DNA from: an uncultured Candidatus Saccharibacteria bacterium | GTDB lineage: Bacteria; Patescibacteriota; Minisyncoccia; SW-4-49-11 | DNA length: 64,000 nt | Direction: 5' to 3' | NCBI GenBank assembly: GCA_964633865.1 | Contig: CAZWIJ010000003.1 | Location: 40,656 to 104,655 of the forward strand | Shown here: positions 5,387 to 44,539 of the stretch, piece after piece | Numbering within the stretch: position 1 is the first letter of the stretch | Layout of the letters: the number at the start of each line of letters is the position of its first letter | The notes under the pieces: generated by a model | The model's input: only the letters and a program-made list of their open reading frames with translations | The model's database searches: none | What the model was told of the DNA's origin: nothing | Program-made: the position numbers and the translations under genes

Positions 5387-8300
5387 TTATTTTTTCTTAT
5401 AAGCCCAGTATAACCAATAAATAGGCATCATAGGATAAAATGTTAGCTTCAAAAACCAATTTAAATCATGGAAATTTTTACTAGACCATCTAAAAAATGT
5501 GAATAAAATTGGAGTTGTTATCAAAGAGATAAATCCTGATGATAATAATCCAAACATTATCACTAAAGATATCGGTCTATAAATTTCAGATAACCAAGCT
5601 AGTGGAGCCAAAGAAGCAATAGCAGTGAACTTAGTCATCAAAACTGGTTTTAGTCTAATTCCTGATGATATTGTGATTGCCTTTACTGGATCTTCACCTT
5701 CTTCTATTCTTTGATTTGCTGAATCAATAAGGAAAATTGCCACATTCTCAACAATACCAACTAAAATTATCATTCCAATTATTTCCAAGAATCCAAATTG
5801 TCCATTACTCAAATGAGCAAGTGCAGGCATAATTCCAATAAATGTAAGTGGTATAGTATAAAGAATAACTAAGGGTTGAGTAAATGAATTAAAGAATAAT
5901 GCCAAAACTATATAGCTTGAGAATATAGCTAATAGAAGTGCTATTGACAATTCACTAAATGACTTCAAGAATCCTGCAGTATCACCTTCACTATAAATCT
6001 CTAGAGAATCTTTATTAAGTTCTAATTCTTTTAGCAGTTTAGCATCATCAGCTTGATATTGCTCTATCAAAGCAGTACCTATTCTACTTGCTATTGCTTG
6101 ATCATTAGTATACTCATTATCTAATTTAGCTTTGATAACACCAATTGTTTGTCCTTTAACTCTTTGGATATTAGATTTTTGAGCTGTTTCTTCAATTGAA
6201 CCAATTTCTGATACTTTAAATCTCTGACCTGATGAATTAAATATATTAATATTATTTAATTCATCAATACTTTTTGGACTAGATTTTTGATCTTCTAAAT
6301 AAATATCTATATCTTTACCTTCAATATCTATATTTGTTACTTTCTGGTCATTATTTAGAACAAAATTTTGTTTAATTGAACTGTTAACTAATGCTGTTGC
6401 TGGAATATTTTGACCCAATAATAAATTTTTTTCTTCCAAAATATTCCTGTCAAATCTAAAGTCTAATATCTTATTATCTTTTCCTGTAAATCCATCATCC
6501 ACTTTCTGAACTAACTTTTTACCATCACTACATTCTTGATCAAATATAATTTTGTCATCTATTAGACAAGCTTTGGCTAATGTTTCACCAATTTCTATAT
6601 TAGATTTTTTAATAATATCTAAATTATTATTCTTAACACTCAGTGATACCTGATAATCACTTGTTGGTGGCCCTTGTGTTATTATGTCAGTAGTATAATC
6701 AAATAGTTTTTCATCAAATTCATCTAAATCTTCTCTTAAATCAGCTATGATTTCTTTTGACGAATATTCTGGCCTTTTATCTTCTGACACAAAATTAATA
6801 TAATATTGAAATGAATTATTGCTTGTTTCAATTGAATAGACATCTTTTACTCCCTTATTCTCTTGGATTTTTGTTAAAATATCTGATAATGTATTTTGTT
6901 TGTCATCAACAGTAAGGTTATTAACAAATGTTCCCGTAACAAAAGCTTCATTACTATTATCTCCTGATGAGAACGAAACTGAAATTATTTGTCTTGTTCC
7001 AAAATAATAGGCAGAGATAGCAATTGGAATAACTAACCCTAATATTATAATTAAAGTCGGTACAATCTTATTACCAGCTAAAATTTTCTGATTTAAATTA
7101 ATTAACCATTTTCCAATTCCCCATAGATTTTCTTCTTCACTTGAAGTTGTATTTTTATTTGGTTTTAAGAATATTCCTCCAAGCCAAGCTAAGAAAACTA
7201 TAGGCACTACATATGAACCAACTACTGCTGGTATAATAGTAAGTGGGATATACTTAAAAATTTGTCCTAATATTCCTGAGATTATTCCAAATGGCAAGAA
7301 TACAATTATATTAGTTAGTGTAGCTAAAAATAATCCCATACCGACATCTTTCACAGCTTCTAGAGATGCTTCTTTACCTCTTAATCCAGTATCTATTTTC
7401 CTTTGAATAGATTCCAAAATAACCAAAGTTGGATCAACAACCAGACCTATCACCAAAACAAGTGAGAACAAAACTAGTGTATTCAAACTTTGTCCAGTAA
7501 AGTAAAGATAAATTGTTGAGAATGATAGTGATAATGGAATAGAAATAGCTGAAATTAATGCAGCTCTCCAAGATACAAAAGCTACCATCACTAAAAATAC
7601 TAATTGAATTCCTCCCAATATCCAACCTAAATTAGAAATAAAAGGATTATCAACATCTAACTTACCTCCAATCAGACCACTTATAACTTCATTTACTTGT
7701 TCTTGATTAGAAGCATTAACTGAATAATTTTCTATAATTTGAACTCTTTCTTTATCAAAAGATTTATCTTGATCTTCATAAGTAATCAAATCTACTCCAT
7801 CATAACTTGATATTTTATCTTTTATTTTTTTATCTAACTTAGAAAGATCTGATCCTTTAACTGATTTTATTGAGAATACTTGACTTTTATTAATAATCGA
7901 ATCTTCACCTTGTCTTATACCAGAATAAGTATTGATATCATTTTCAGTCTTATAAGTTGTTTCCAATTGAGCGAAGTCTTGTAATAAAAGTTTAGTTGGA
8001 ACTGGGGTAGGGATAGGCGATGTAAAAGATAAATTTTTGATGTCATCAAGAGAGGTAGATTCAAGACTAGTCACAATTGATTGAGATTTATCATCAATAT
8101 TAATATCAGAAATCACAGGTAAACTTTCTCCAGTATTTTTTAGTTTAGCAACAATACCATCTACAGAAATCCCATTTTGAGCTAATTTATCTGTATCTAA
8201 TTTTATTACTAATCTTTTCTCTAATGGGATTTCTGCTTCAAATTTAGCTATTTCTGGAAATTCTTTTAAATCTTCTTTTAATTTTTCTGATATATTATAG

Positions 8301-11594: not shown

Positions 11595-12611
11595 TTATTC
11601 AGCTTTTAAATCCTCTATAAATATTGAAATTATAGATACACTTGGCACAGCTATAATAGCACCTACAGCTCCAAAAATTGAAGCTCCCAATAATATGGAT
11701 ACAAAGATAACTATTGGACTAAGTCCAGTAGCTTTACCAATTATTAAGGGTTCATAAACATTACTCTGAATATTTTGTAAAATTATATATGCAATTATAA
11801 TAATTAATCCTAACTGAATTGAAATAGAAAAAGCTATAATAATAACAGGAAAGACTGCTATCAAAGGTCCTATATAAGGTATTATATCGAAAATAGCAAC
11901 CATCAGTCCAAACAAAATAGCATATGGGATACCAAAAATAAGTAGTATAATATAGAAGCTGATTCCCATTAGACTAGATGTTATCATCTTACCAACTAAC
12001 CACTCACCTACTTTAGTTCTGGCTTTCTCTATATTATTTCTGATTTTTTTTTGATATTTATAAGGAGAAAAAAATGTAAATATATCATCAAAACTTTTAA
12101 AATTAATTGAAATATAAAATGTTAAAACTAATATTACCAGTGTATTAAATATTACTAAACTAATCTCTTTTGAAGTTAATATAATGCTATTAATAAAATC
12201 TGTTGAATACTTTGGTAAATCTAATTTTATCCCATTTCCACTAATATCAAAGTTATTTCCAAAAGATCCTAAAGATATATCTTCAATAAATTTTTCAAAA
12301 TTTGATGTAATAATAGGTATATTTTTTATAAAAGCATTTATTTCTGAAACTAAAGTTGGCACAAAAATAATTAAAATCAAAGATAATACAAACAAAATAA
12401 AGCTAAATACTAATGTTAAGCTAAATAAATAATTAATATTCAATTTATCGCTTATTTTTCTAGAAAATAATATTATACCAGATGAAATTATAAAAGAAAT
12501 TAATAATATTATAAATACTACTCTTAATTGATAGATTAAAAATATTATTATTGAGAAATATATTAATTTTAATAAATTATCTGTTGAAATTTCTACATTA
12601 TACTTATCCAT
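11595..12611 (-). CDS. AI-2E family transporter (PerM/YhhT-like)
   Basis: 338 aa with 7-8 TM segments. The C-terminal segment GLSPIVIFVSILLGASIFGAVGAIIAVP is characteristic of AI-2E/UPF0118. Confidence 0.55.
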   Translation of the reverse strand: MDKYNVEISTDNLLKLIYFSIIIFLIYQLRVVFIILLISFIISSGIILFSRKISDKLNINYLFSLTLVFSFILFVLSLILIIFVPTLVSEINAFIKNIPIITSNFEKFIEDISLGSFGNNFDISGNGIKLDLPKYSTDFINSIILTSKEISLVIFNTLVILVLTFYISINFKSFDDIFTFFSPYKYQKKIRNNIEKARTKVGEWLVGKMITSSLMGISFYIILLIFGIPYAILFGLMVAIFDIIPYIGPLIAVFPVIIIAFSISIQLGLIIIIAYIILQNIQSNVYEPLIIGKATGLSPIVIFVSILLGASIFGAVGAIIAVPSVSIISIFIEDLKAE

Positions 12612-12647
12612 CTTTTTATGTTTATTATAAAATTAATTATATCACAA

Positions 12648-13544
12648 TTATTTCTGACAAGAAAGACACATAACCGTTGTCCTATTATTTATAGTAGACT
12701 TATTTAAAATATTACCACATACAAGGCATTCTTTTCCACCTCTACCATAAACTTTATGTTCTCTTGCAAATGTTCCTCTGCTACCATCCGCCATAATATA
12801 ATTAGCTACGGAAGAACCTCCTAGTTCTATAGCTCTATCAAATACTTTAATTATATTTTCATATAACAATTCTACCTCACTTAGAGTCAAACTAGAACTT
12901 ATTCTATCTGGCCTAATTTTACATCGAAAACAAACTTCATCTACATAAATATTACCAAGTCCAACAACAACTTTCTGATTCATTAAAACTGTTTTTAATT
13001 TAGAGTTACTTTTATTTAAAGACTTATATAAAAAATCTAATGTAAACTCTGTATCCCATGGTTCCAATCCTAAATATTTAAAATGATTATTTTCCAATAA
13101 ATTACTCATCTTCTCATAATATAAAACATAACCAAACATACGAATATCATTATAAAATAGAGTTCCTTTATCTAAATTAAAAACTATATGTGAATGTTTA
13201 TTTGGTAATGTACTTTCTGAGATTTCTATTGGATGTCCTCCTAAAGCTTTATTTTTACCATTTTCTACATAAACAAGTTGTCCTGTCATCTTTAAATGAA
13301 CCAAAATCAAGCTATCATTTTCTAACTTGATAATAATATTTTTAGCTCTTCTCTCAATAGATATAATTTTTTGTCCCTTAATTGACTTAATAAATTCTAG
13401 TAATTTATCTTGAGACTCAACTCTTTTTGTACCACTACCACTTATTATTTTAGGTTTATGAACAGAAACATCAATTATTTTTTTACCAATAATAAATTTC
13501 CTTAAAGATCTAACTAAACTTTCTACTTCTGGTAATTCTGGCAT
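12648..13544 (-). CDS. mutM: formamidopyrimidine-DNA glycosylase (Fpg/MutM)
   Basis: Starts MPELPEVE, with a catalytic Pro2 and Glu3. H2TH region present. C-terminal zinc finger CLVCG...CLSCQ. Confidence 0.85.
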   Translation of the reverse strand: MPELPEVESLVRSLRKFIIGKKIIDVSVHKPKIISGSGTKRVESQDKLLEFIKSIKGQKIISIERRAKNIIIKLENDSLILVHLKMTGQLVYVENGKNKALGGHPIEISESTLPNKHSHIVFNLDKGTLFYNDIRMFGYVLYYEKMSNLLENNHFKYLGLEPWDTEFTLDFLYKSLNKSNSKLKTVLMNQKVVVGLGNIYVDEVCFRCKIRPDRISSSLTLSEVELLYENIIKVFDRAIELGGSSVANYIMADGSRGTFAREHKVYGRGGKECLVCGNILNKSTINNRTTVMCLSCQK

Positions 13545-13561
13545 AAATTTATGAGTTATTT

Positions 13562-14278
13562 TTACTTTTTTCTTTTATTATATTCCAAAGTTTTCCTAAG
13601 ATCAGTAACAAAAGATGCGTCTATATCTAGAGTATCAAATAATGCAGAATATGCTTGTTCATTAGGAACTAATAGTTTTTCTAATTTTCCCTTATTTTGC
13701 AAATACTGAACTAAACTATAGAAATCACCATCTCCACTTACTATAACAGCTTTATTATATTGATTAATTTTTGTTAAAGCATAAAGTGTAATTTCTGTAT
13801 CTACATTACCTTTTATATCACCAAATTTATTAGCAATAGTTGGCTTGAAAACAAGATGATAACCAAAGTCTTGTAATGCTGAGTATAAAGTTTGATTAGT
13901 AGTAATAAGCCCAATAAAGATATAAGCTTTTTTAACATTATATTTAGTATCTAGGTATTGCCTAAATTCTTTATAATCAAGATTCCAACCTTGTAATTTT
14001 ACGGCCTTATTCAAATTTTGACCATCAATAAATGCATAATTTTCTTTTAGAGACTCTTTCTGATTAGTAATTTTAGCTTGAATACTTTTATGTATTATAT
14101 TTTTAGGTGGCAAATTTTGCTTTGTCTTTTTTTCTATATGCTTCAATTTAATATTTTCTTTTGCGATTTTAGAGTTAATATTTTTCTCTATAACTTTTAC
14201 AGCTAGATCATCACCTGTTGTAAAAAATTTAGGTGATTTAAAGTTCTTTTTTTTAAAACTATTTCTATTATTATCCAT
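13562..14278 (-). CDS. NYN-domain (LabA/DUF88-like) protein, predicted RNase fold with a basic N-terminal extension
   Basis: Contains AFIDGQNLN and VIVSGDGDF (NYN acidic residues). The N-terminal ~80 aa are lysine-rich. Confidence 0.55.
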   Translation of the reverse strand: MDNNRNSFKKKNFKSPKFFTTGDDLAVKVIEKNINSKIAKENIKLKHIEKKTKQNLPPKNIIHKSIQAKITNQKESLKENYAFIDGQNLNKAVKLQGWNLDYKEFRQYLDTKYNVKKAYIFIGLITTNQTLYSALQDFGYHLVFKPTIANKFGDIKGNVDTEITLYALTKINQYNKAVIVSGDGDFYSLVQYLQNKGKLEKLLVPNEQAYSALFDTLDIDASFVTDLRKTLEYNKRKK

Positions 14279-14285
14279 TATAAAA

Positions 14286-15038
14286 TTAAATTATTGTTAA
14301 TATCTCAACACCATTTTTGGTTACTAAAACCGTATTTTCATAATGTGCAGATAGACTATGATCATCAGAAATGACAGTCCACTCATCATCAGAATCCACA
14401 TAAATTTCTTCTGAACCTAAAGTTACCATTGGTTCCAAAGCTATTGTCATACCCTCTCTCAAAATAAATCCTTGTCCTTTAACACCATAATTAGGAATAT
14501 TAGGATCTTCATGTAAAGCTTCTCCTATTCCATGTCCAGCATAATCTCTGATGATTCCATAATTAAATTGTGATAAATATTTTTCTACAGCATAACCATA
14601 ATCTCCAACAGTACTCTCATCTTTAATAGTTGAGATTCCTTTATAAAAAGATTTTTTTGTTCTCTCAATTAATAAATTAGCTGCTTCTGAAATTTCACCC
14701 ACTCCAAAGCTTCTCGCAGCATCTAAATATAAACCTTCCAAAATCAAACCACAATCAAGAGAAACAATATCTCCTTCTTGGACTATCTTATCTTGTTTGG
14801 GTACTCCATGGATTATTTCTTCATTGATAGAAATACAAACTGCACCTATAAACCCATGATAACCCAAAAAAGCTGGCTTTACTTTTTTCTGTTTGAAAAA
14901 CTCTTGAACTTTAGTATCTATTTCCAAAGTAGATACTCCTTGATTAGTAATAGATTCCATATATTCTAAAGCCTCAGCCAAAATCTTACCACCTCTTCTC
15001 ATCACTTCTATCTGTAATTTGTTCTTAATTTGAACCAT
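14286..15038 (-). CDS. map: methionine aminopeptidase type I
   Basis: Contains GYHGFIGAVCISINEEIIHG, DCGLILEGLYLDAARS, DYAGHGIGEALHE and TIALEPM. All metal-ligand positions are conserved. Confidence 0.9.
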   Translation of the reverse strand: MVQIKNKLQIEVMRRGGKILAEALEYMESITNQGVSTLEIDTKVQEFFKQKKVKPAFLGYHGFIGAVCISINEEIIHGVPKQDKIVQEGDIVSLDCGLILEGLYLDAARSFGVGEISEAANLLIERTKKSFYKGISTIKDESTVGDYGYAVEKYLSQFNYGIIRDYAGHGIGEALHEDPNIPNYGVKGQGFILREGMTIALEPMVTLGSEEIYVDSDDEWTVISDDHSLSAHYENTVLVTKNGVEILTII

Positions 15039-15051
15039 AAATTATAATTTA

Positions 15052-15648
15052 TTAAATATTCAATCCTTCTTTATTTAGGCTATTTAAAATATCTTTTGAT
15101 ACTAATTCCATTGATTTATTACCATCAATAGTAATCAATGTTCCTTTTTCTTTGAAATATTCTATCGCAGGAATAACTATTTCTCGATAAGCTTCTAATC
15201 TATTTTGAATATGCTCAAGCTCATCATCTGCTCTATGAATAAGATTTTTTCTTTCTGTTAGCCTTTCTATTGCAACCTCATCTGGAATATCAATATATAT
15301 AGCTTTATATGGTCTTTCAAACCAACCCAAAACTTCATGTACAAGCTCAGCTTCTCTCTTTGATCTTGCAGCTCCATCTAAGATAACACTATCTTCTCTC
15401 CCTAATTTGTTAAATAATTTTTCCATTAAAACATAAGATGGAAACCAATAAGGAAGTAAATCTCCTTTTTCAATAGTTGATTTAACTTTATTTGATACAA
15501 AATTTTTCTTTTTAGATATCTCTCTAAAAAATTCTCCGTACCCTACTATAGAAAACCTTAATCTTTCTTTCAAAATTCCACTTTGTGTACCTTTACCTGC
15601 TCCTGGTTTTCCGAGCATAATCAAGGTATTAATTTCTGATTGATTCAT
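15052..15648 (-). CDS. adk: adenylate kinase
   Basis: P-loop GKPGAGKGTQ, an NMP-binding region, and an LID region with R..DD. 198 aa, directly upstream of map, as in spc-operon ends. Confidence 0.85.
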   Translation of the reverse strand: MNQSEINTLIMLGKPGAGKGTQSGILKERLRFSIVGYGEFFREISKKKNFVSNKVKSTIEKGDLLPYWFPSYVLMEKLFNKLGREDSVILDGAARSKREAELVHEVLGWFERPYKAIYIDIPDEVAIERLTERKNLIHRADDELEHIQNRLEAYREIVIPAIEYFKEKGTLITIDGNKSMELVSKDILNSLNKEGLNI

Positions 15649-15713
15649 AAAATAAATAGTTAATATTCTTTATATTATAAACTATTTCGAATAAAATATC
15701 AAATTAAAATTTA

Positions 15714-17846
15714 TTATTGAGTAAATTTTAATATAAATATATCATATGAACCATTTGTACTTAATGAAACTAAATTTCCATTTATATCATTCCCTAAGCT
15801 CATTAGGTTTGATATAAAATAACCAGATATTATTAAATTATCATAATCATCAATCATAACTAAACTTCCAAAATCATTTCCATTTTGTATTAAACTTTTT
15901 TTTGAATATAATAAACCACCATTTAAATTATACTTTGATATATGGAGCTCTTCACTTTCATTATTATTTAAATTGATTGGATTTCCATTTATATCATTCC
16001 CTAAATTTATAGGATTAGAGCTGAAATATCCTGTAACTATTATATTATTGTCATTATCAATAGCGATGTTATTAATATAATCATTATCATTTCCTCCTGC
16101 ACTCCTTGCCCACAATAATTCTCCATCAATGTTATATTTTGATATATAAAAGTCTTGAATTCCATTATTATTTAGATTTATTGGATTTCCATTTATATCA
16201 TTTCCTAAACTAAGTACATTCGATTGAAAACTACCTGCTACTATTATATTGTTATCATTATCAAGTTTCATATCATTCATATAATCAAATCCTCCCCCTC
16301 CTGCACTCTTTGCCCATAATAGTTCTCCATCAATATTATATTTTGATATATATGTATCTCTACTTCCATTATTACTTAAATTTATTGGGTTTCCATTTAT
16401 ATCATTTCCTAAATTTAGTACATTCGATTGGAAACTACCTGCCACTATTATATTGTTACCATTATCACTTGTTATAGAAAAACCATAATCAGCTAAATTA
16501 CCTCCTGCACTCTTTGCCCATAATAATTCCCCATCAATATTATATTTTGATATAAAAAAGTCTTGACTACCATTATTATTTAAATTTATTGGGTTTCCAT
16601 TTATATCATTTCCTAAACTCATAGGATTAGAGCTGAAATATCCTGTAACTATTATATTATTGTCATTATCACTCGTTATAGAAATACCGTATTCACCTAA
16701 AGTTTCTCCACTACTCTTTGCCCATAATAATTCTCCATCAATATTATATTTTGATATATAAAAGTCTTGACTTCCATTATTATTTAGATTTATTGGATTT
16801 CCATTTATATCACTTCCTAAATTCATTATATTTGAATCAAAATATCCTGTAATTATTATATTATCGTTATTATCACTCGTCACATGACTAACATTATCAA
16901 ATCCACTTCCTCCTGCACTCTTTGCCCATAATAATTCTCCATCAGTGTTATATTTTGATAGATATATATCTCTGTTACCATTATTATTTAAATTGATTGG
17001 ATTTCCATTTATATCACTTCCTAAATTCATTACATTTGAGTCAAAATATCCTGTAATTATTATATTATCATTATTATCACTCGTCACATGACTAACATTA
17101 TCAAATCCACTTCCTCCTGCACTCTTTGCCCAAAGAGTAGTTAGTGAAGGAATATTAACTTGAGTTATACTTCCACTTGCTAGTACATTTTCACCTATCA
17201 CTATTTTTGATACTATCTCTTTTCCTGCATCTGCTGTTTGCACCACATAACTTATCCCTGTTCCTACTTGAGTCTCTATTCCAGCATCCACTGTATACCA
17301 AATTAGACTTTCTTCTGATATATTTAGTCCTGTTGGGAGTGTTACTGTCAATGTCTGTCCTACTTCATTTGTTCCATTTATTACTAAACTTAGTTCTATT
17401 GGATTAATTATTATAAATTCTCCTAATACAGCTTTATCTGCAAATACACTTATTTTATTATTTACATTATTTATACCCGCTTTATATCCTCCTCCTTTTG
17501 GATCTCTTGGTATTTCTGCTATATATGTTGGAACTAACTCTCTCAGATCTATCTTTCCTGTACAATCTGTTGAATCTCCCTCTATCTCTTTTCCTGTATC
17601 ACATATTTCACCGTATAATCCTGTTGCATCATCTATTATATCTTTTGGATATCTTCCATTCGATATATAATATTGATCTAATGCTTTTTGTACTGTATTT
17701 ATTCCTCCCCATCTACTTGCATTCTCTGCTTTTCCTATCTGTCTTAATGGATTTATAGCGACAATAACTATACTTGCTAATATTCCTATTGATGCTATTA
17801 CCAACAATATCTCTAATAATGTAAATCCTTTCTTTTTATTATTCAT
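15714..17846 (-). CDS. type IV pilin-like (prepilin N-terminal cleavage/methylation domain) surface protein with a 7-bladed SBBP-type beta-propeller repeat array
   Basis: The N-terminus KKG|FTLLEILLVIASIGILASIVI is a class III signal with Glu at +5. From about aa 238 there are seven ~68-aa repeats (LWAKSAGG...NIIITGYF...GNDINGNPINLNNNG...ISKYN.DGEL). Confidence 0.7.
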   Translation of the reverse strand: MNNKKKGFTLLEILLVIASIGILASIVIVAINPLRQIGKAENASRWGGINTVQKALDQYYISNGRYPKDIIDDATGLYGEICDTGKEIEGDSTDCTGKIDLRELVPTYIAEIPRDPKGGGYKAGINNVNNKISVFADKAVLGEFIIINPIELSLVINGTNEVGQTLTVTLPTGLNISEESLIWYTVDAGIETQVGTGISYVVQTADAGKEIVSKIVIGENVLASGSITQVNIPSLTTLWAKSAGGSGFDNVSHVTSDNNDNIIITGYFDSNVMNLGSDINGNPINLNNNGNRDIYLSKYNTDGELLWAKSAGGSGFDNVSHVTSDNNDNIIITGYFDSNIMNLGSDINGNPINLNNNGSQDFYISKYNIDGELLWAKSSGETLGEYGISITSDNDNNIIVTGYFSSNPMSLGNDINGNPINLNNNGSQDFFISKYNIDGELLWAKSAGGNLADYGFSITSDNGNNIIVAGSFQSNVLNLGNDINGNPINLSNNGSRDTYISKYNIDGELLWAKSAGGGGFDYMNDMKLDNDNNIIVAGSFQSNVLSLGNDINGNPINLNNNGIQDFYISKYNIDGELLWARSAGGNDNDYINNIAIDNDNNIIVTGYFSSNPINLGNDINGNPINLNNNESEELHISKYNLNGGLLYSKKSLIQNGNDFGSLVMIDDYDNLIISGYFISNLMSLGNDINGNLVSLSTNGSYDIFILKFTQ
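15730..17135. repeat. tandem ~204-bp coding repeats (7 copies) inside the pilin-like gene; the two central copies are nearly identical
   Basis: Stretches around 16861-16960 and 17065-17164 are almost identical (tatcactcgtcacatgactaacattatcaaatccacttcctcctgcactctttgcccat...). The period matches the 68-aa protein repeat. Confidence 0.7.
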
Positions 17847-17922
17847 ATCTTAATTATTTATTATGTTAATTATTATATTATAATAATTATATCATATCTT
17901 TTATTGTTTTCAAGATATAAAA

Positions 17923-29345: not shown

Positions 29346-31322
29346 TTATCTTTTATGTGTCAACAAGATTTTAGTTAAATTTTTAAAATTAACTATTAAA
29401 ATAATAATAAAGATCCATGAAAATAATTGTACATAAAATATTTTATGCCACTGATGTGTTAATAGAACATCTTCTCCTGTCCTATTTATAATAATCTTAT
29501 AGTCAGAAGATTTCTGGATATAATTCGAACCATTTATATTAAATCCTTTTGAATAATTATGGTTAAGATAAATATATGGATATTGGTCGATATCTTTACC
29601 ATCATCCTTAATCAAAATTTGATTTAACTTTGGGTAAATTACTGAGAATTCAGGTTTATTTGATTCAAATAAAATTTCTACTATCTCTTTATTATCTTTA
29701 TCTAAATTATCATAATTGTAAAAATTATTTTCAATATTCAATTTTGTATCTAAATTCTGAATTGTTGAGAAATCTGATTCATCAATACCTGTAGCAATTT
29801 TCGGTTCAAAATTAGATTCTAAAATATTATAGACATTTCCATCAGAACTAAAATTTATTACTTTTAATTTTTCTTGTTTGATAAGTTCTTGTAATAAAAT
29901 TGGATATGGCTCTTGTATAGGAAAAATTTGTTTTACTCCCAAAACTTTCATATAAGTCCAAAGATTCTCAGAACTAAAATCTCTTTTTTGCCCATCTATA
30001 CATTTATGAAAATGTATTAGATCTTCAAAGGCACCAGCATTTGGACTCAAAACCAAATGATTACTATAACCTGTAATAAATTGAAAATCATAATTTGAAT
30101 TTTTATTAGAATTTAAATGAGTAAATCTAAAATCACTAGAAAAGTCATACACTCTACTTTTGATAGAAGGTAATGCATTACGATAATATTCTATATTTTC
30201 TTTTGTTTTAGTATATTCTAAATAATAAACTTTGACCACAGAAACAACCAAAGAGAATAAAATAATTGATAAAAAAGCCATAATTGTGACCAAATTTCTT
30301 TGTTTTAATTTCTTCTGTAAATAAATATAGACTGGAAATCCTGATATCAAAATTCCTATGTATACAATTTGATTCATTCTCGTAATCTGAACTCTATGAA
30401 AAATAGGTATATAGTAAAGTGAATTTATTAACAAAATTAACCACATAAAAAAATTAGCTCCAAAAAATATTTTAGCCTCTTTTGAATGAAATTTATTTTT
30501 CCAAATCAAAAATATACAAAATAAAATAATCAAAACCATTAAAAGATCTAAATGAAAGAAACTTCTAATAACTGGATATGATATAGATGAGAGATGATAA
30601 TTATCGGTAAATTTTAAATCTTCCCAGAAATATTGATAAATATACAAAAAACTACTCAAAATAAATATTAATCCGGAAATTAAAACTGTCTTGATCTTAA
30701 ATTGAAATAATTCTTTTAACCAAAAAAATCCTAAAATAACACTATTATAAATTCCAAATAAAGGATGTATATAAAGACTCAATCCAGCAAATAAGCTTAA
30801 TCCCATTGTATTTTTATTAAATCCAAAATTTGTATTATTAATGAAATAATATGCAACTATAGGTGTCAGAAGAATAGCAAACAATAAAGTTGGCATATGT
30901 AATACAGACCAAAAATAAAATGGTGTATAACTAATTATGCTAATTATCAGACTATAATTGGGATTAACTTTAAATTTTCTAAGTATAATATAAATAATTA
31001 ATCTTAGTGCAAATATATAAAAAATTGCAAATCCATACAAAATTTGTATACTAGAGAGACCCAAATATTTTAGTGGCAATAATAAGTAAAATAAAATAAA
31101 TTGATAAGACCGCCAATAAGTAATTCCTCCATACCAAGAAACATCATAAGAAATCAAACCATTCTGATAAAGAGAATCTAATCTAAAAGCACCTAAAAGA
31201 AAATCCCCAGAAATTCCTAAAAATGAATTATAGTCACCCAAAATAGGCATAGAAATTATAATACCTACTATCAAAATTATTATTATATAGATTAAATCTA
31301 TTTTGTTAAATTTAATTTTCAT
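29346..31322 (-). CDS. large polytopic membrane protein (658 aa, ~14 TM plus a C-terminal extracytoplasmic domain); possible GT-C-type glycosyltransferase (unverified)
   Basis: TM-rich N-terminal 380 aa with a first-loop GDYNSFLGISGDF, and a soluble ~270-aa C-terminus. Lies in a cluster with GT2 genes. Confidence 0.45.
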   Translation of the reverse strand: MKIKFNKIDLIYIIIILIVGIIISMPILGDYNSFLGISGDFLLGAFRLDSLYQNGLISYDVSWYGGITYWRSYQFILFYLLLPLKYLGLSSIQILYGFAIFYIFALRLIIYIILRKFKVNPNYSLIISIISYTPFYFWSVLHMPTLLFAILLTPIVAYYFINNTNFGFNKNTMGLSLFAGLSLYIHPLFGIYNSVILGFFWLKELFQFKIKTVLISGLIFILSSFLYIYQYFWEDLKFTDNYHLSSISYPVIRSFFHLDLLMVLIILFCIFLIWKNKFHSKEAKIFFGANFFMWLILLINSLYYIPIFHRVQITRMNQIVYIGILISGFPVYIYLQKKLKQRNLVTIMAFLSIILFSLVVSVVKVYYLEYTKTKENIEYYRNALPSIKSRVYDFSSDFRFTHLNSNKNSNYDFQFITGYSNHLVLSPNAGAFEDLIHFHKCIDGQKRDFSSENLWTYMKVLGVKQIFPIQEPYPILLQELIKQEKLKVINFSSDGNVYNILESNFEPKIATGIDESDFSTIQNLDTKLNIENNFYNYDNLDKDNKEIVEILFESNKPEFSVIYPKLNQILIKDDGKDIDQYPYIYLNHNYSKGFNINGSNYIQKSSDYKIIINRTGEDVLLTHQWHKIFYVQLFSWIFIIILIVNFKNLTKILLTHKR

Positions 31323-42031: not shown

Positions 42032-42105
42032 GGATGTGTAGCTCAGCTGGTTAGAGCGGGCGTCTTATAAGCGCCAGGTCGGTGGTTCAAGTCCACCCAT
42101 ATCCA
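42032..42105 (+). tRNA. tRNA-Ile with anticodon UAU (tRNA-Ile-GAU-like backbone with G34 replaced by T)
   Basis: GGATGTG-TA-GCTC-AGCTGGTTA-GAGC-G-GGCGT-CTTATAA-GCGCC-AGGTC-GGTGG-TTCAAGT-CCACC-CATATCC-A. The body is nearly identical to bacterial tRNA-Ile(GAU), but the anticodon loop reads CTTATAA. No encoded CCA. Confidence 0.75.
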
Positions 42106-42212
42106 CATTTAATTTTAAATAAAGCAAATCATATATTGAACATGTAACAGGTTATTGATGATATAGAATAAAAACAAATAAAACAATATAAAAAGCCATT
42201 TTAAATTTAAAA

Positions 42213-42262: not shown

Positions 42263-42291
42263 AAATAGAATTTTTTAAAAAAATTCTATTT
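42263..42291. repeat. perfect 29-bp palindrome AAATAGAATTTTTT-A-AAAAAATTCTATTT overlapping the stop codon of the LRR gene
   Basis: Exact self-complementarity seen directly. Either a symmetric bidirectional terminator or a dimeric protein-binding site. Confidence 0.5.
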
Positions 42292-44539
42292 AACTTCTAA
42301 TTTCATCTGAAAGATTTAAATTATTTACTTCTTCTTCAATGTTTTTATTAAGATCAATATAAACACCTATTAAGCAATTTTCTAACAACTTATCTAAATT
42401 TTTTGCTATTTTGAGTCCCCTTAACTTTAAATGTCTTCCTATTTCTTTTGGTAATTTTAGATTCTCTATTGTCTCTAATTTATTTAAATTAAGACTTCCT
42501 CCTATCTTCTCTGGTAATTTGAGATTATCGGCTGTCTTTAATGCATTCAAACCAAGACTTCCTCCTATCTTCTCTGGCAATTTGAGATTATCGGCTGTCT
42601 TTAGTACATTCAAACCAAGGTTTCCTACTATTTCCTTTGGTAATTCTAAATTATCAGCTGTCTTTAATCCATTTAAATTAAGATTTCCTATTATCTTCTC
42701 TGGTAATTTGAGATTATCGGTTGTCTTTAACCTATCTAAATTAAGATTTCCTACTATTTCCTTTGGTAATTCTAAATTCTCGACTGTTTCTAATCTATCT
42801 AAATAAAGATATCCTCCTATTTCCTTTGGTAATTCTAAATTATTGATTCTTTCTAATCCACTCAAATCAAGATATCCTCCTATTTTCTCTGGTAATTTTA
42901 AATCATCAGCTTTTTCTAATCCACTTAAATTAAGATGTCCTCCTATTTTCTCTGGTAATTCTAAATAATAGGCTTCATATAATCCACTTAAATCAAGACC
43001 TCCTCCTATTTTCTCTGGTAATTCTAAATAATAGGCTTCATATAATCCACTTAAATTAAGATTTCCTACTATTTCCTTTGGTAATTCTAAATTATCGGCT
43101 GTCTTTAATCCATCTAAATTAAGATTTCCTCTTATTATATCTGGTAGTTTTAAATTTTCTGCTGTTTTTAGATAACCTAAATCAATATCTCCGTAATGAT
43201 AACCTATATCTCCAGATAAAGCTTCTTCTTGTGTTAAACTTATTTTATCTGCTGTTGTATCTAATATAAATGCTAAATCTTCTTTTACATCTCTTCCTCT
43301 CTTTACCTTTTCTAATCTTGGATCTTGATTATATCCAAAACTTATAAATTCCTCTTCTAATTCCCAACTCAATATTAAATCTTCTTTATTTAGTTCTTCT
43401 TTATTCTCTATTTTATCTAATATTTCTGTTAATCTCTTTGCATTCTCATCTTTCTTTTTGTATTCTTCTGCTTTATCTCCAAATTCTTCTAGCTTTTCAC
43501 TCAATATATTTGTTCCTGCTATATATTCATCCATATTTTGTTCTTCTGCTATTCCTCTTATCTCTACTATTTCTTCTCCTTCCATCCTGATTGTGATTCT
43601 TGGATTTTCTATTTGTCCATTCTTGTTTTTGCTATAATATATATAAAAGTCTCCCATTTCTAAATAGCTTTCTGCTGTTGATTCACTTGCTATACACCAT
43701 CCTGTATTTCTTCCTTCTAATGTCTTTGTTACTTCTTTTGGTTCACTTCCTTTCTCATATCTTATCCATTCTCCTTCTGTTATTGATAATTCTGTATTGC
43801 CTTCTACTTCTGCATTTTTTAAGGCTTTTGCATATAATTCTCCAAAGTCTGCTTTCTTGATTAATTTTTCCAATTCTTCATCTTCTCCTACTTCTATCTT
43901 ATTTTCTTCTACATATTTTATTATTCCATCTACTGCATAGGCTAATGCTTCTCTATTTAATTCTGGGTATGGGGCTACTGTTCCTTTACTTCTTTTTCCA
44001 AATTTAAATGTTTCTTTATCATATTTAGATAATTTTAACATTCCTTGGAACATCCAATACTTTGCCCACATTGGATAATGGCTTGTATCACTGCTTATTA
44101 GATAATCTGCCCATTTACCTAAACTTTTTTCTTGATCTTTGGCTATAGTTCCTATTGATCCTTCTTTCATTCCTGACCTTTCTATATCTTTTTCTGTATA
44201 TTCTCTCTCAAAAAACTCTCCTAGCTCTCCTCCTTGTCCTCTCTCTATTGCTTGTTTTCTTTGCACATTAAAGTAACTTAATGGTATTTCTTCTGCTTCC
44301 ATTACATGATCTTTGTATAGATATCTTCTCTTTACTCTTTCTTTTAACTCTTCATTCTCTTCCATTCTAGCATTATCTCTTTCTAATTTCCTTAGCCAAT
44401 TTCCTAGCTTTTCTACTGGTTTTTGACTTACTTTCTCTCCTCTTTCTTTTGTTCTCTTAGTTTCTGCTTCTACTTCTTCACTTATATGTAAGTTTCCGAA
44501 TTTTTTCTTTATAAATTCTGCTCCTTTCTTCTCTTCCAT
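42290..44539 (-). CDS. leucine-rich repeat (LRR) protein: ~450-aa charged N-terminal region of unknown function plus ~13 tandem 22-aa LRRs
   Basis: C-terminal repeats with consensus L-N-L-x-G-L-K-T-A-D-N-L-K-L-P-E-K-I-G-G-x (22 aa), encoded by 66-bp tandem DNA repeats. The coding strand is extremely purine-rich (E/K-rich protein). No recognisable domain in the N-terminal part. Confidence 0.7.
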   Translation of the reverse strand: MEEKKGAEFIKKKFGNLHISEEVEAETKRTKERGEKVSQKPVEKLGNWLRKLERDNARMEENEELKERVKRRYLYKDHVMEAEEIPLSYFNVQRKQAIERGQGGELGEFFEREYTEKDIERSGMKEGSIGTIAKDQEKSLGKWADYLISSDTSHYPMWAKYWMFQGMLKLSKYDKETFKFGKRSKGTVAPYPELNREALAYAVDGIIKYVEENKIEVGEDEELEKLIKKADFGELYAKALKNAEVEGNTELSITEGEWIRYEKGSEPKEVTKTLEGRNTGWCIASESTAESYLEMGDFYIYYSKNKNGQIENPRITIRMEGEEIVEIRGIAEEQNMDEYIAGTNILSEKLEEFGDKAEEYKKKDENAKRLTEILDKIENKEELNKEDLILSWELEEEFISFGYNQDPRLEKVKRGRDVKEDLAFILDTTADKISLTQEEALSGDIGYHYGDIDLGYLKTAENLKLPDIIRGNLNLDGLKTADNLELPKEIVGNLNLSGLYEAYYLELPEKIGGGLDLSGLYEAYYLELPEKIGGHLNLSGLEKADDLKLPEKIGGYLDLSGLERINNLELPKEIGGYLYLDRLETVENLELPKEIVGNLNLDRLKTTDNLKLPEKIIGNLNLNGLKTADNLELPKEIVGNLGLNVLKTADNLKLPEKIGGSLGLNALKTADNLKLPEKIGGSLNLNKLETIENLKLPKEIGRHLKLRGLKIAKNLDKLLENCLIGVYIDLNKNIEEEVNNLNLSDEIRS
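42400..43200. repeat. tandem 66-bp coding repeats (~12-13 copies) of the LRR gene, including two adjacent near-identical copies around 42950-43080
   Basis: Repeated ...ctctggtaattctaaat...ccacttaaattaagatttcctcctattttctctggtaattc... units are visible directly. The antisense ORF 42411-42806 is a mirror artefact of this array. Confidence 0.75.

Follow-up and report, generated by a model that had tools for sequence, protein, structure and literature searches.

A predicted modular type IV prepilin with a seven-bladed β-propeller in an uncultivated Patescibacteria bacterium

We analyzed a 64-kb stretch of DNA from an uncultured Candidatus Saccharibacteria bacterium (GenBank assembly GCA_964633865.1, contig CAZWIJ010000003.1), here called the window; positions are window coordinates unless another contig is named. 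On its minus strand, positions 15714–17846 hold a complete modular prepilin gene of 710 codons, an uninterrupted open reading frame (ORF) running from an ATG start to a stop codon at 15714–15716. The product has four parts: a class III signal, a small pseudopilin-like head with a cysteine pair, an immunoglobulin (Ig)-like spacer of ~85 residues, and seven 68-residue units. It thus joins an N-terminal pilin module (residues 1–148) to a C-terminal domain that is not pilus-specific, the combination that marks a modular pilin. We conclude that this Patescibacteria (candidate phyla radiation, CPR) bacterium probably encodes a modular type IV pilin whose propeller would be a binding module displayed on a pilus. 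The CPR assignment agrees with LepA from the window, whose named relatives, at no more than 58% identity, all belong to Patescibacteria.

The N-terminus carries a canonical prepilin signal

The first seven residues, MNNKKKG (17826–17846, minus strand), form a short, basic leader, and the N-terminus reads MNNKKKG|FTLLEILLVIASIGILASIVIVAINP. The leader ends in Gly at position -1 and is followed by Phe at +1 and Glu at +5, the arrangement of a class III signal; cleavage is predicted after Gly7, and the mature part would begin FTLLE. Profile searches bore out the original prediction of a class III signal (KKG|FTLLE) followed by a hydrophobic helix. The NCBIfam prepilin domain (TIGR02532) scored 21.5 bits against a cut-off of 16.3, and positions 1–61 of GspG matched residues 6–68 with an E value of 7e-11. 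No variation at G7, F8, T9, L10 or E12 occurs among 56 homologues of the head, and the motif is likewise invariant in 11 full-length homologues. Across the window, in all six frames, this is the sole prepilin-type N-terminus.

The mature pilin module (residues 8–148; 17403–17825, minus strand) comprises FTLLE, the hydrophobic α1N segment, an α1 helix spanning residues 10–63 and a small β-sheet head, as assigned by DSSP in two AlphaFold2 models. Sequence matches to solved structures over residues 4–68 were led by Geopilin, a Geobacter pilin (1.8e-6), followed by GspG (2.2e-4) and PilE/PilA (~0.01). The head resembles type II secretion system (T2SS) pseudopilins (GspG/PulG) at least as closely as it does true pilins. 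Cys82 and Cys95 (17562–17603, minus strand) are the only two cysteines of the protein and are each at least 90% conserved among the 56 head homologues. They probably form a disulfide in the head, and the presence of exactly two cysteines, both conserved, fits an extracytoplasmic location. Residues 149–232 (17151–17402, minus strand) form an Ig/fibronectin type III (FN3)-like β-sandwich between head and propeller, with seven strands in both models. A separate AlphaFold2 model of residues 1–237 (predicted local distance difference test, pLDDT, 85.3) gave the lollipop and Ig-like layout again.

Seven in-register units are modeled as a closed propeller

Seven repeats of ~68 residues had been predicted. 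We found six units of 68 residues and one of 65, in register and with a 204-nt period. Together they span residues 238–710 (15717–17135, minus strand). The units, with their minus-strand positions, are residues 238–305 (16932–17135), 306–373 (16728–16931), 374–441 (16524–16727), 442–509 (16320–16523), 510–577 (16116–16319), 578–645 (15912–16115) and 646–710 (15717–15911). A full-length AlphaFold2 model built from a 79-sequence alignment reached a mean pLDDT of 89.3 and a predicted template modeling score (pTM) of 0.71. It contains a helix at residues 10–63, a small sheet, a seven-strand sandwich at residues ~155–227, and seven blades of six strands each at pLDDT 96–98, and so models the array as a closed seven-bladed β-propeller.

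The closest solved propeller is that of CylK (query residues 252–611 against CylK 245–570, E = 1.8e-19), and seven-bladed Photorhabdus lectins appear among the propeller fold matches. In the CylK propeller, unusually long internal loops fold over the outer face, and every junction between blades holds a Ca2+ site (PMC8916777). Long loops of this kind would explain why each 68-residue unit is modeled with six strands, and by analogy the conserved Asp/Asn-rich blade motifs are candidate metal sites. The array opens with the strand LWAKSAGG and closes after DIFILKFTQ; with such ends the ring may be closed in 'velcro' fashion, the last blade being completed by the first strand.

The propeller had originally been called SBBP-type. 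In the broad sense this stands: its relatives belong to the SBBP/delta-60 superfamily, and DUF5122 (PF17164) scored 30.2 bits in Pfam against a cut-off of 27. In the narrow sense it does not, as the SBBP family itself (PF06739) gave no match to the protein at E ≤ 1, yet is recorded for most of its homologues. The delta-60 model (TIGR02608) scored 46.9 bits against a cut-off of 76.5 (E = 1.8e-12); we take InterPro entry IPR013431 to be the same repeat. A Leptospira SBBP lipoprotein model (NF047494) matched with E = 3e-18, its 65.7 bits lying far below the equivalog cut-off of 400. We rejected as spurious a match to KH_PARP14_5 (residues 252–269; 28.6 bits, above the cut-off of 23), which covers an 18-residue piece of a blade and contains zero significant stretches. 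The same domain is also stored as a precomputed annotation of the protein; the repeats have almost certainly produced a false match here, which makes it an annotation trap.

The blades have been homogenized at the nucleotide level

The DNA encoding the blades is a tandem array (15927–17132, unstranded) for which Tandem Repeats Finder reported a period of 204, 5.9 copies, 82% matches and a score of 1325; a repeat search likewise found six to seven copies at exactly 204-nt spacing. The original prediction placed the most similar copies in the middle of the array, and this was not borne out. Its near-identical segments, 16861–16960 and 17065–17164, agree at only 75 of 100 positions, and the second extends beyond the array's start. 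Instead, blades 1 and 2 are the most alike, at 91% identity both in nucleotides (over 204 nt) and in amino acids, with the other blade pairs at 73–84%. A sliding comparison at a 204-nt offset located the most recently homogenized stretch within these two blades (16800–17103, unstranded), where ~16800–16899 and 17004–17103 are identical at 97 of 100 positions.

Average blade-to-blade identity is 62.5% (maximum 91%) in this protein as against 31–52% in ten homologues. When its blades are compared with those of the nearest homologues, blade 2 or 4 gives a better match than the blade at the corresponding position. At blade positions with the same amino acid, the codon is also shared in 562 of 697 comparisons, where local codon usage predicts 414. 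This extension of similarity to synonymous sites points to homogenization or re-amplification within the lineage, beyond what constraint on the protein would produce. The hairpin LGNDINGNPINLNNNG is almost invariant across the seven blades, and the segment after LWAKSAGG varies.

Of the earlier suggestion of ongoing concerted evolution, the homogenization was upheld and the word 'ongoing' was not. The other members of the 90%-identity cluster differ by I340V, by G699S or at the extreme C-terminus, and every full-length member has seven units. The cluster variants thus show no difference in copy number, which appears to be stable in the populations sampled. Collapse of the repeats during assembly, a concern raised with the original prediction, is contradicted by the independent assemblies, which give an identical gene. 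The identical 710-residue protein is present in four independent Joint Genome Institute (JGI) metagenome assemblies; the source samples are JGI 3300008093, 3300008005, 3300008020 and 3300025831. A base-by-base comparison of one gene copy, on contig L001, with the window showed no nucleotide mismatch.

The pilin head is shared by proteins with different cargo

Ten full-length homologues have the same layout of prepilin signal, head and seven blades (P0007, P0010, P0018, P0024, P0025, P0036, P0038, P0050, P0097 and P0102). They are 33–43% identical to our protein, and some carry a prepilin-type annotation from JGI; P0007 alone among them shares the Ig-like spacer. The propeller superfamily as a whole is very large, with 226,317 cluster representatives at E ≤ 1e-3 in an exhaustive profile search. 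Pilin-fused members are a small minority: of the 150 best hits, only some six can be aligned from the pilin N-terminus onward. Most of the remaining propeller relatives are Bacteroidota proteins with type IX secretion system (T9SS) sorting tails. When a genome collection was scanned with the complete protein, the sole match, to an Omnitrophota contig, covered 27 residues at the N-terminus and was attributed to chance.

A search with residues 1–237 retrieved 644 proteins, and most of the matches listed cover ~46–67% of the query, that is, the head. Among the 120 listed of these 644, the attached domains were Laminin_G_3 (56 proteins), Lcl_C (8), DUF5122/SBBP (5), Fibrinogen_C (4), Fib_succ_major (4), FGE-sulfatase (3), Gly_rich_2 (3) and PA14 with GLEYA (2). 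One head is thus reused with various cargo, much of it lectin-type; the source names of the head homologues include Paceibacterota and Minisyncoccia. The spacer is common only to P0007, P0133, P0134 and a paralogue next to the window. The partial sequences P0134 (344 residues) and P0133 (255 residues) are 65–77% identical to our protein over head and spacer and then continue into different cargo. In P0134 this cargo is an array of classic delta-60 repeats (FNNxVYTTAIQSDGKVIVGG), so that carrier and spacer have been combined with more than one propeller subtype.

The paralogue is a second pilin-propeller gene of the same genome. It lies on contig L010 (5524–7572, minus strand), ~0.6–2.6 kb to the left of window position 1, which corresponds to L010 position 8168. 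Its product repeats the layout of prepilin signal, head, Ig-like spacer and seven blades, but the blades are of another subtype (FGEGGNQxNLV). Its identity to our protein falls from 81% in α1 to 55% in the head, 56% in the Ig-like domain and 37% in the propeller, a gradient indicating that the carrier has been conserved and the cargo has diverged. The paralogue is a single frame of 682 codons with one in-frame TAG, at codon 41, where our gene has GAG (Glu); the TAG was found in three independent assemblies. Either this gene became a pseudogene very recently, or it is silenced or read through. Contigs L009 and L010 (~5524–6500) diverge in this gene from nt ~1059 on, with a 100-nt length difference within the blade array, and its gene calls are 305 and 544 residues, respectively, in contrast to the stable gene in the window. 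This divergence reflects either repeat-associated heterogeneity or misassembly.

Genomic context

The gene lies among housekeeping genes, with metK and rmlD upstream and adk (15052–15648), map (14286–15038), a gene for an NYN-domain protein and fpg downstream. The original prediction read this as the place where secY would normally lie. The gene is indeed directly upstream of adk-map, but the resemblance is positional only: metK and rmlD are not ribosomal-protein genes, and the homologues occupy unrelated neighborhoods in which the position is not conserved. We therefore attach no functional meaning to it. The adk and map genes (14286–15648, minus strand) are themselves paired but detached from any ribosomal-protein/secY operon.

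A promoter-like TTGAAA-16-TATAAT with a TG extension (17886–17913, minus strand) precedes the ATG by ~40 nt and matches the consensus at 11 of 12 positions. Joint best with it in a 5.5-kb scan is another 11/12 match in the spacer before adk (15674–15702, minus strand). The scan scored consensus matches only, in AT-rich DNA, and found 59 where 44 were expected. The location of the two best matches in both flanking spacers suggests that the pilin gene may be transcribed on its own.

The neighborhoods of homologues likewise consist of housekeeping genes and sometimes include further prepilin genes; two of the five examined have a PilM_2/FtsA-like gene 4–6 kb downstream. In two divergent genomes a recurring block lies 4–6 kb downstream of the pilin-propeller gene (L006 15933–21472; L015 15082–20650). 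It encodes a tRNA-synt_2c protein (576 residues), a membrane protein of ~200 residues, a PilM_2/FtsA-like protein (~400 residues), a protein of ~520 residues and a membrane protein of ~145 residues. The block might be a pilus alignment module or a division module; we did not count the PilM_2 gene on L006 as pilus machinery, as it matches FtsA too. Contig L006, which carries the pilin-propeller gene P0126 together with this PilM_2-like gene, comes from the same assembly as the window. Its coverage (5.54 against 5.50) and its tetranucleotide correlation (0.985, compared with 0.981 within the window) are suggestive of the same genome. Directly downstream of P0126 on L006 lie 23S and 5S rRNA genes (12436–15826). 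Only protein genes were called in the ~12 kb upstream; a 16S gene is missing there, a sign that the rRNA operon may be unlinked.

Elsewhere, the window encodes a tRNA-Ile with anticodon TAT (UAU; 42032–42106, plus strand), an uncommon bacterial route to reading AUA. Nearby is a gene for a 749-residue protein (42290–44539, minus strand) with only a weak LRR_14 match and no obvious signal peptide. The C-terminal half of this protein has about a dozen leucine-rich repeats of ~22 residues (LELPKEIGGxLxLxGLxxAxN), and the region shows strongly negative GC and AT skew. A 658-residue protein (29346–31322, minus strand) has many predicted membrane-spanning stretches and matches no Pfam family at E ≤ 1e-3.

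Discussion

On the reading that we favor, a prepilin peptidase would remove the seven-residue leader after Gly7. The hydrophobic N-terminal helix would anchor the protein in the membrane and then dock into a type IV filament. With a C-terminal cargo of ~60 kDa, the protein would most likely be a low-abundance (minor) subunit located at the filament tip. There the Ig-like spacer would hold the closed seven-bladed SBBP/delta-60 (CylK-like) propeller off the filament. The propeller would act as a ligand-binding module, its target on a partner or host cell probably being a glycan or another component of the surface. Binding would probably be multivalent, since one hairpin recurs almost unchanged in every one of the seven blades. 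An adhesin role is suggested by analogy with precedents in other systems (PMC8179133; PMC11623550).

Several observations weigh against this reading. The Pfam N_methyl score, 20.7 bits, falls marginally under the cut-off of 21.2. The modeled residues 1–237 have no Foldseek match at E ≤ 0.001. Matches to pilin heads are weak (PulG, E = 0.017, TM score 0.48), and so is the fold-level case for a pilin head; matches of the spacer to Ig/FN3 domains, at E = 0.002–0.1, are weak as well. CylK, the closest solved propeller, is an enzyme rather than a lectin. No PilB, PilC, PilD or PilT gene was found in the window or in ~8 kb past either end, and in the five homologue neighborhoods examined no gene for an assembly ATPase, a platform protein or a peptidase is adjacent; their sole machinery-like neighbor is the PilM_2/FtsA-like gene found in two of them. 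Because machinery is absent from the window and its surroundings, assembly into a filament is a step that we infer.

In an alternative reading, the role of the class III signal is limited to export and membrane anchoring. After cleavage, the propeller would then sit on the cell surface or on a short stub, like a pseudopilus or bindosome, with no long pilus. In archaea, sugar-binding proteins carry class III signals for surface display and form no long pili, which provides a precedent. An orphan gene with its own promoter-like site among housekeeping genes, the lack of a nearby pilus operon here and in the examined homologues, and a head at least as close to T2SS pseudopilins as to true pilins would all suit such an arrangement. 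We nevertheless regard it as unlikely. The head is conserved with varied cargo in hundreds of proteins and its Glu+5 is invariant, and in type IV filaments this residue matters for subunit docking and not for anchoring alone. Experimental precedent also favors pilus-borne modular pilins (PMC8179133; PMC11623550).

A second alternative is that the propeller is catalytic, like CylK or virginiamycin B lyase, acting for example on the host envelope, with the pilin part delivering the enzyme; modular pilins with predicted peptidase modules do exist (PMC8179133). We consider this improbable. The protein is without the N-terminal Ca-binding domain that in CylK packs into the propeller center (PMC8916777). 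Blades so similar to one another are easier to reconcile with repeated binding sites than with one asymmetric active site, and the other cargo on the same carrier is mostly lectin-like. Finally, although 204-bp repeats at 73–91% identity are hard to assemble, and although the neighboring paralogue contains a nonsense codon and has unequal lengths in different assemblies, a misassembled array or a decaying pseudogene is scarcely credible, given the uninterrupted ORF, the agreement of the four assemblies and of the L001 copy, the seven blades in all full-length members of the 90% cluster, and homologues that share the seven-blade layout.

A bolder scheme can also be drawn, which we regard as quite doubtful. 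One conserved pilin head would be the universal carrier in this CPR lineage for exchangeable modules of host recognition, among them LamG, fibrinogen-C, PA14/GLEYA and propellers of several types. In the propeller variants, intragenic gene conversion would rewrite the seven binding sites simultaneously. Paralogues would be silenced by single nonsense codons, as in the neighboring copy, which only GAG → TAG separates from an open frame. The outcome would be a cassette-like system with which obligate episymbionts rapidly change the host or ligand that they recognize.

Binding modules displayed on pili are the leading candidates for the means by which uncultivated CPR bacteria recognize their hosts and attach to them. 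To these the gene adds a well-defined and confidently modeled propeller pilin with a canonical prepilin signal. The carrier head, joined to many lectin-type modules in related genomes, provides a concrete list of candidate host-recognition proteins. Published concepts of modular pilins are unchanged by it.

Comparison with known systems

Among propellers of the same superfamily, Bacteroidota SBBP-repeat proteins and Leptospira LipL53-family lipoproteins are 30–39% identical to our protein over the propeller and are surface-located or secreted. They are exported or anchored by a C-terminal Por_Secre_tail or a lipobox, whereas our protein would use its N-terminal prepilin signal. A literature search for SBBP together with pilin found nothing. 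A 2026 preprint on a CPR 'Pam pilus' was set aside as not relevant, since it concerns donor-strand-exchange pili and not type IV pilins. The C-terminal propeller of CylK (PDB 7ron/7fh6; PMC8916777) likewise has seven blades with long internal loops over the outside. However, CylK is a cytoplasmic biosynthetic enzyme with an N-terminal Ca-binding β-roll domain and no pilin module, and the alignment to it is confined to the propeller; our protein has a pilin head and an Ig-like domain in its N-terminal part. Like PilY1/PilC of diderm type IVa pili, our protein would be a propeller-containing adhesin at the pilus tip. PilY1 differs in that it is not a pilin, docks onto minor pilins and has a propeller of another family, and the PilY1/PilC-type Pfam domain gave no match in our protein at E ≤ 1.

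Modular pilins are widespread, and their extra modules are thought to be exposed at the tip and adhesive (PMC8179133). In Streptococcus sanguinis they include PilB, with a von Willebrand factor A (vWA) module, and PilC, with a lectin module (PMC8179133; PMC9934059). With these our protein shares a class III signal, a small pilin module and a bulky C-terminal module that is not pilus-specific. It differs in that its cargo is a complete seven-bladed SBBP/delta-60 propeller placed after an Ig-like spacer. It is also encoded by an orphan gene outside a pil locus in an uncultivated CPR host, and is known here from its sequence and models. A published InterPro survey lists the related architecture IPR012902-IPR013431-IPR013431 in four proteins (PMC8179133).

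The best functional precedent is PilX2 of Nanosynbacter lyticus TM7x: when it is deleted, binding drops from ~10.6% of host cells to 4.6% (PMC11623550). Homologues of pilB, pilT, pilM and pilC occur in most Patescibacteria phyla, and TM7x itself has orphan pilin loci (PMC11623550). PilX2, a minor pilin, is like our protein a CPR pilin with a C-terminal seven-bladed propeller. Its propeller is of the RCC1 type, it has no predicted PilD signal, and its gene lies in a pilin locus, whereas our protein has a CylK/SBBP-like propeller with no RCC1 match in Pfam and a canonical prepilin signal. The gene is thus a clear example of an already described design, the modular pilin, and not a new kind of system.

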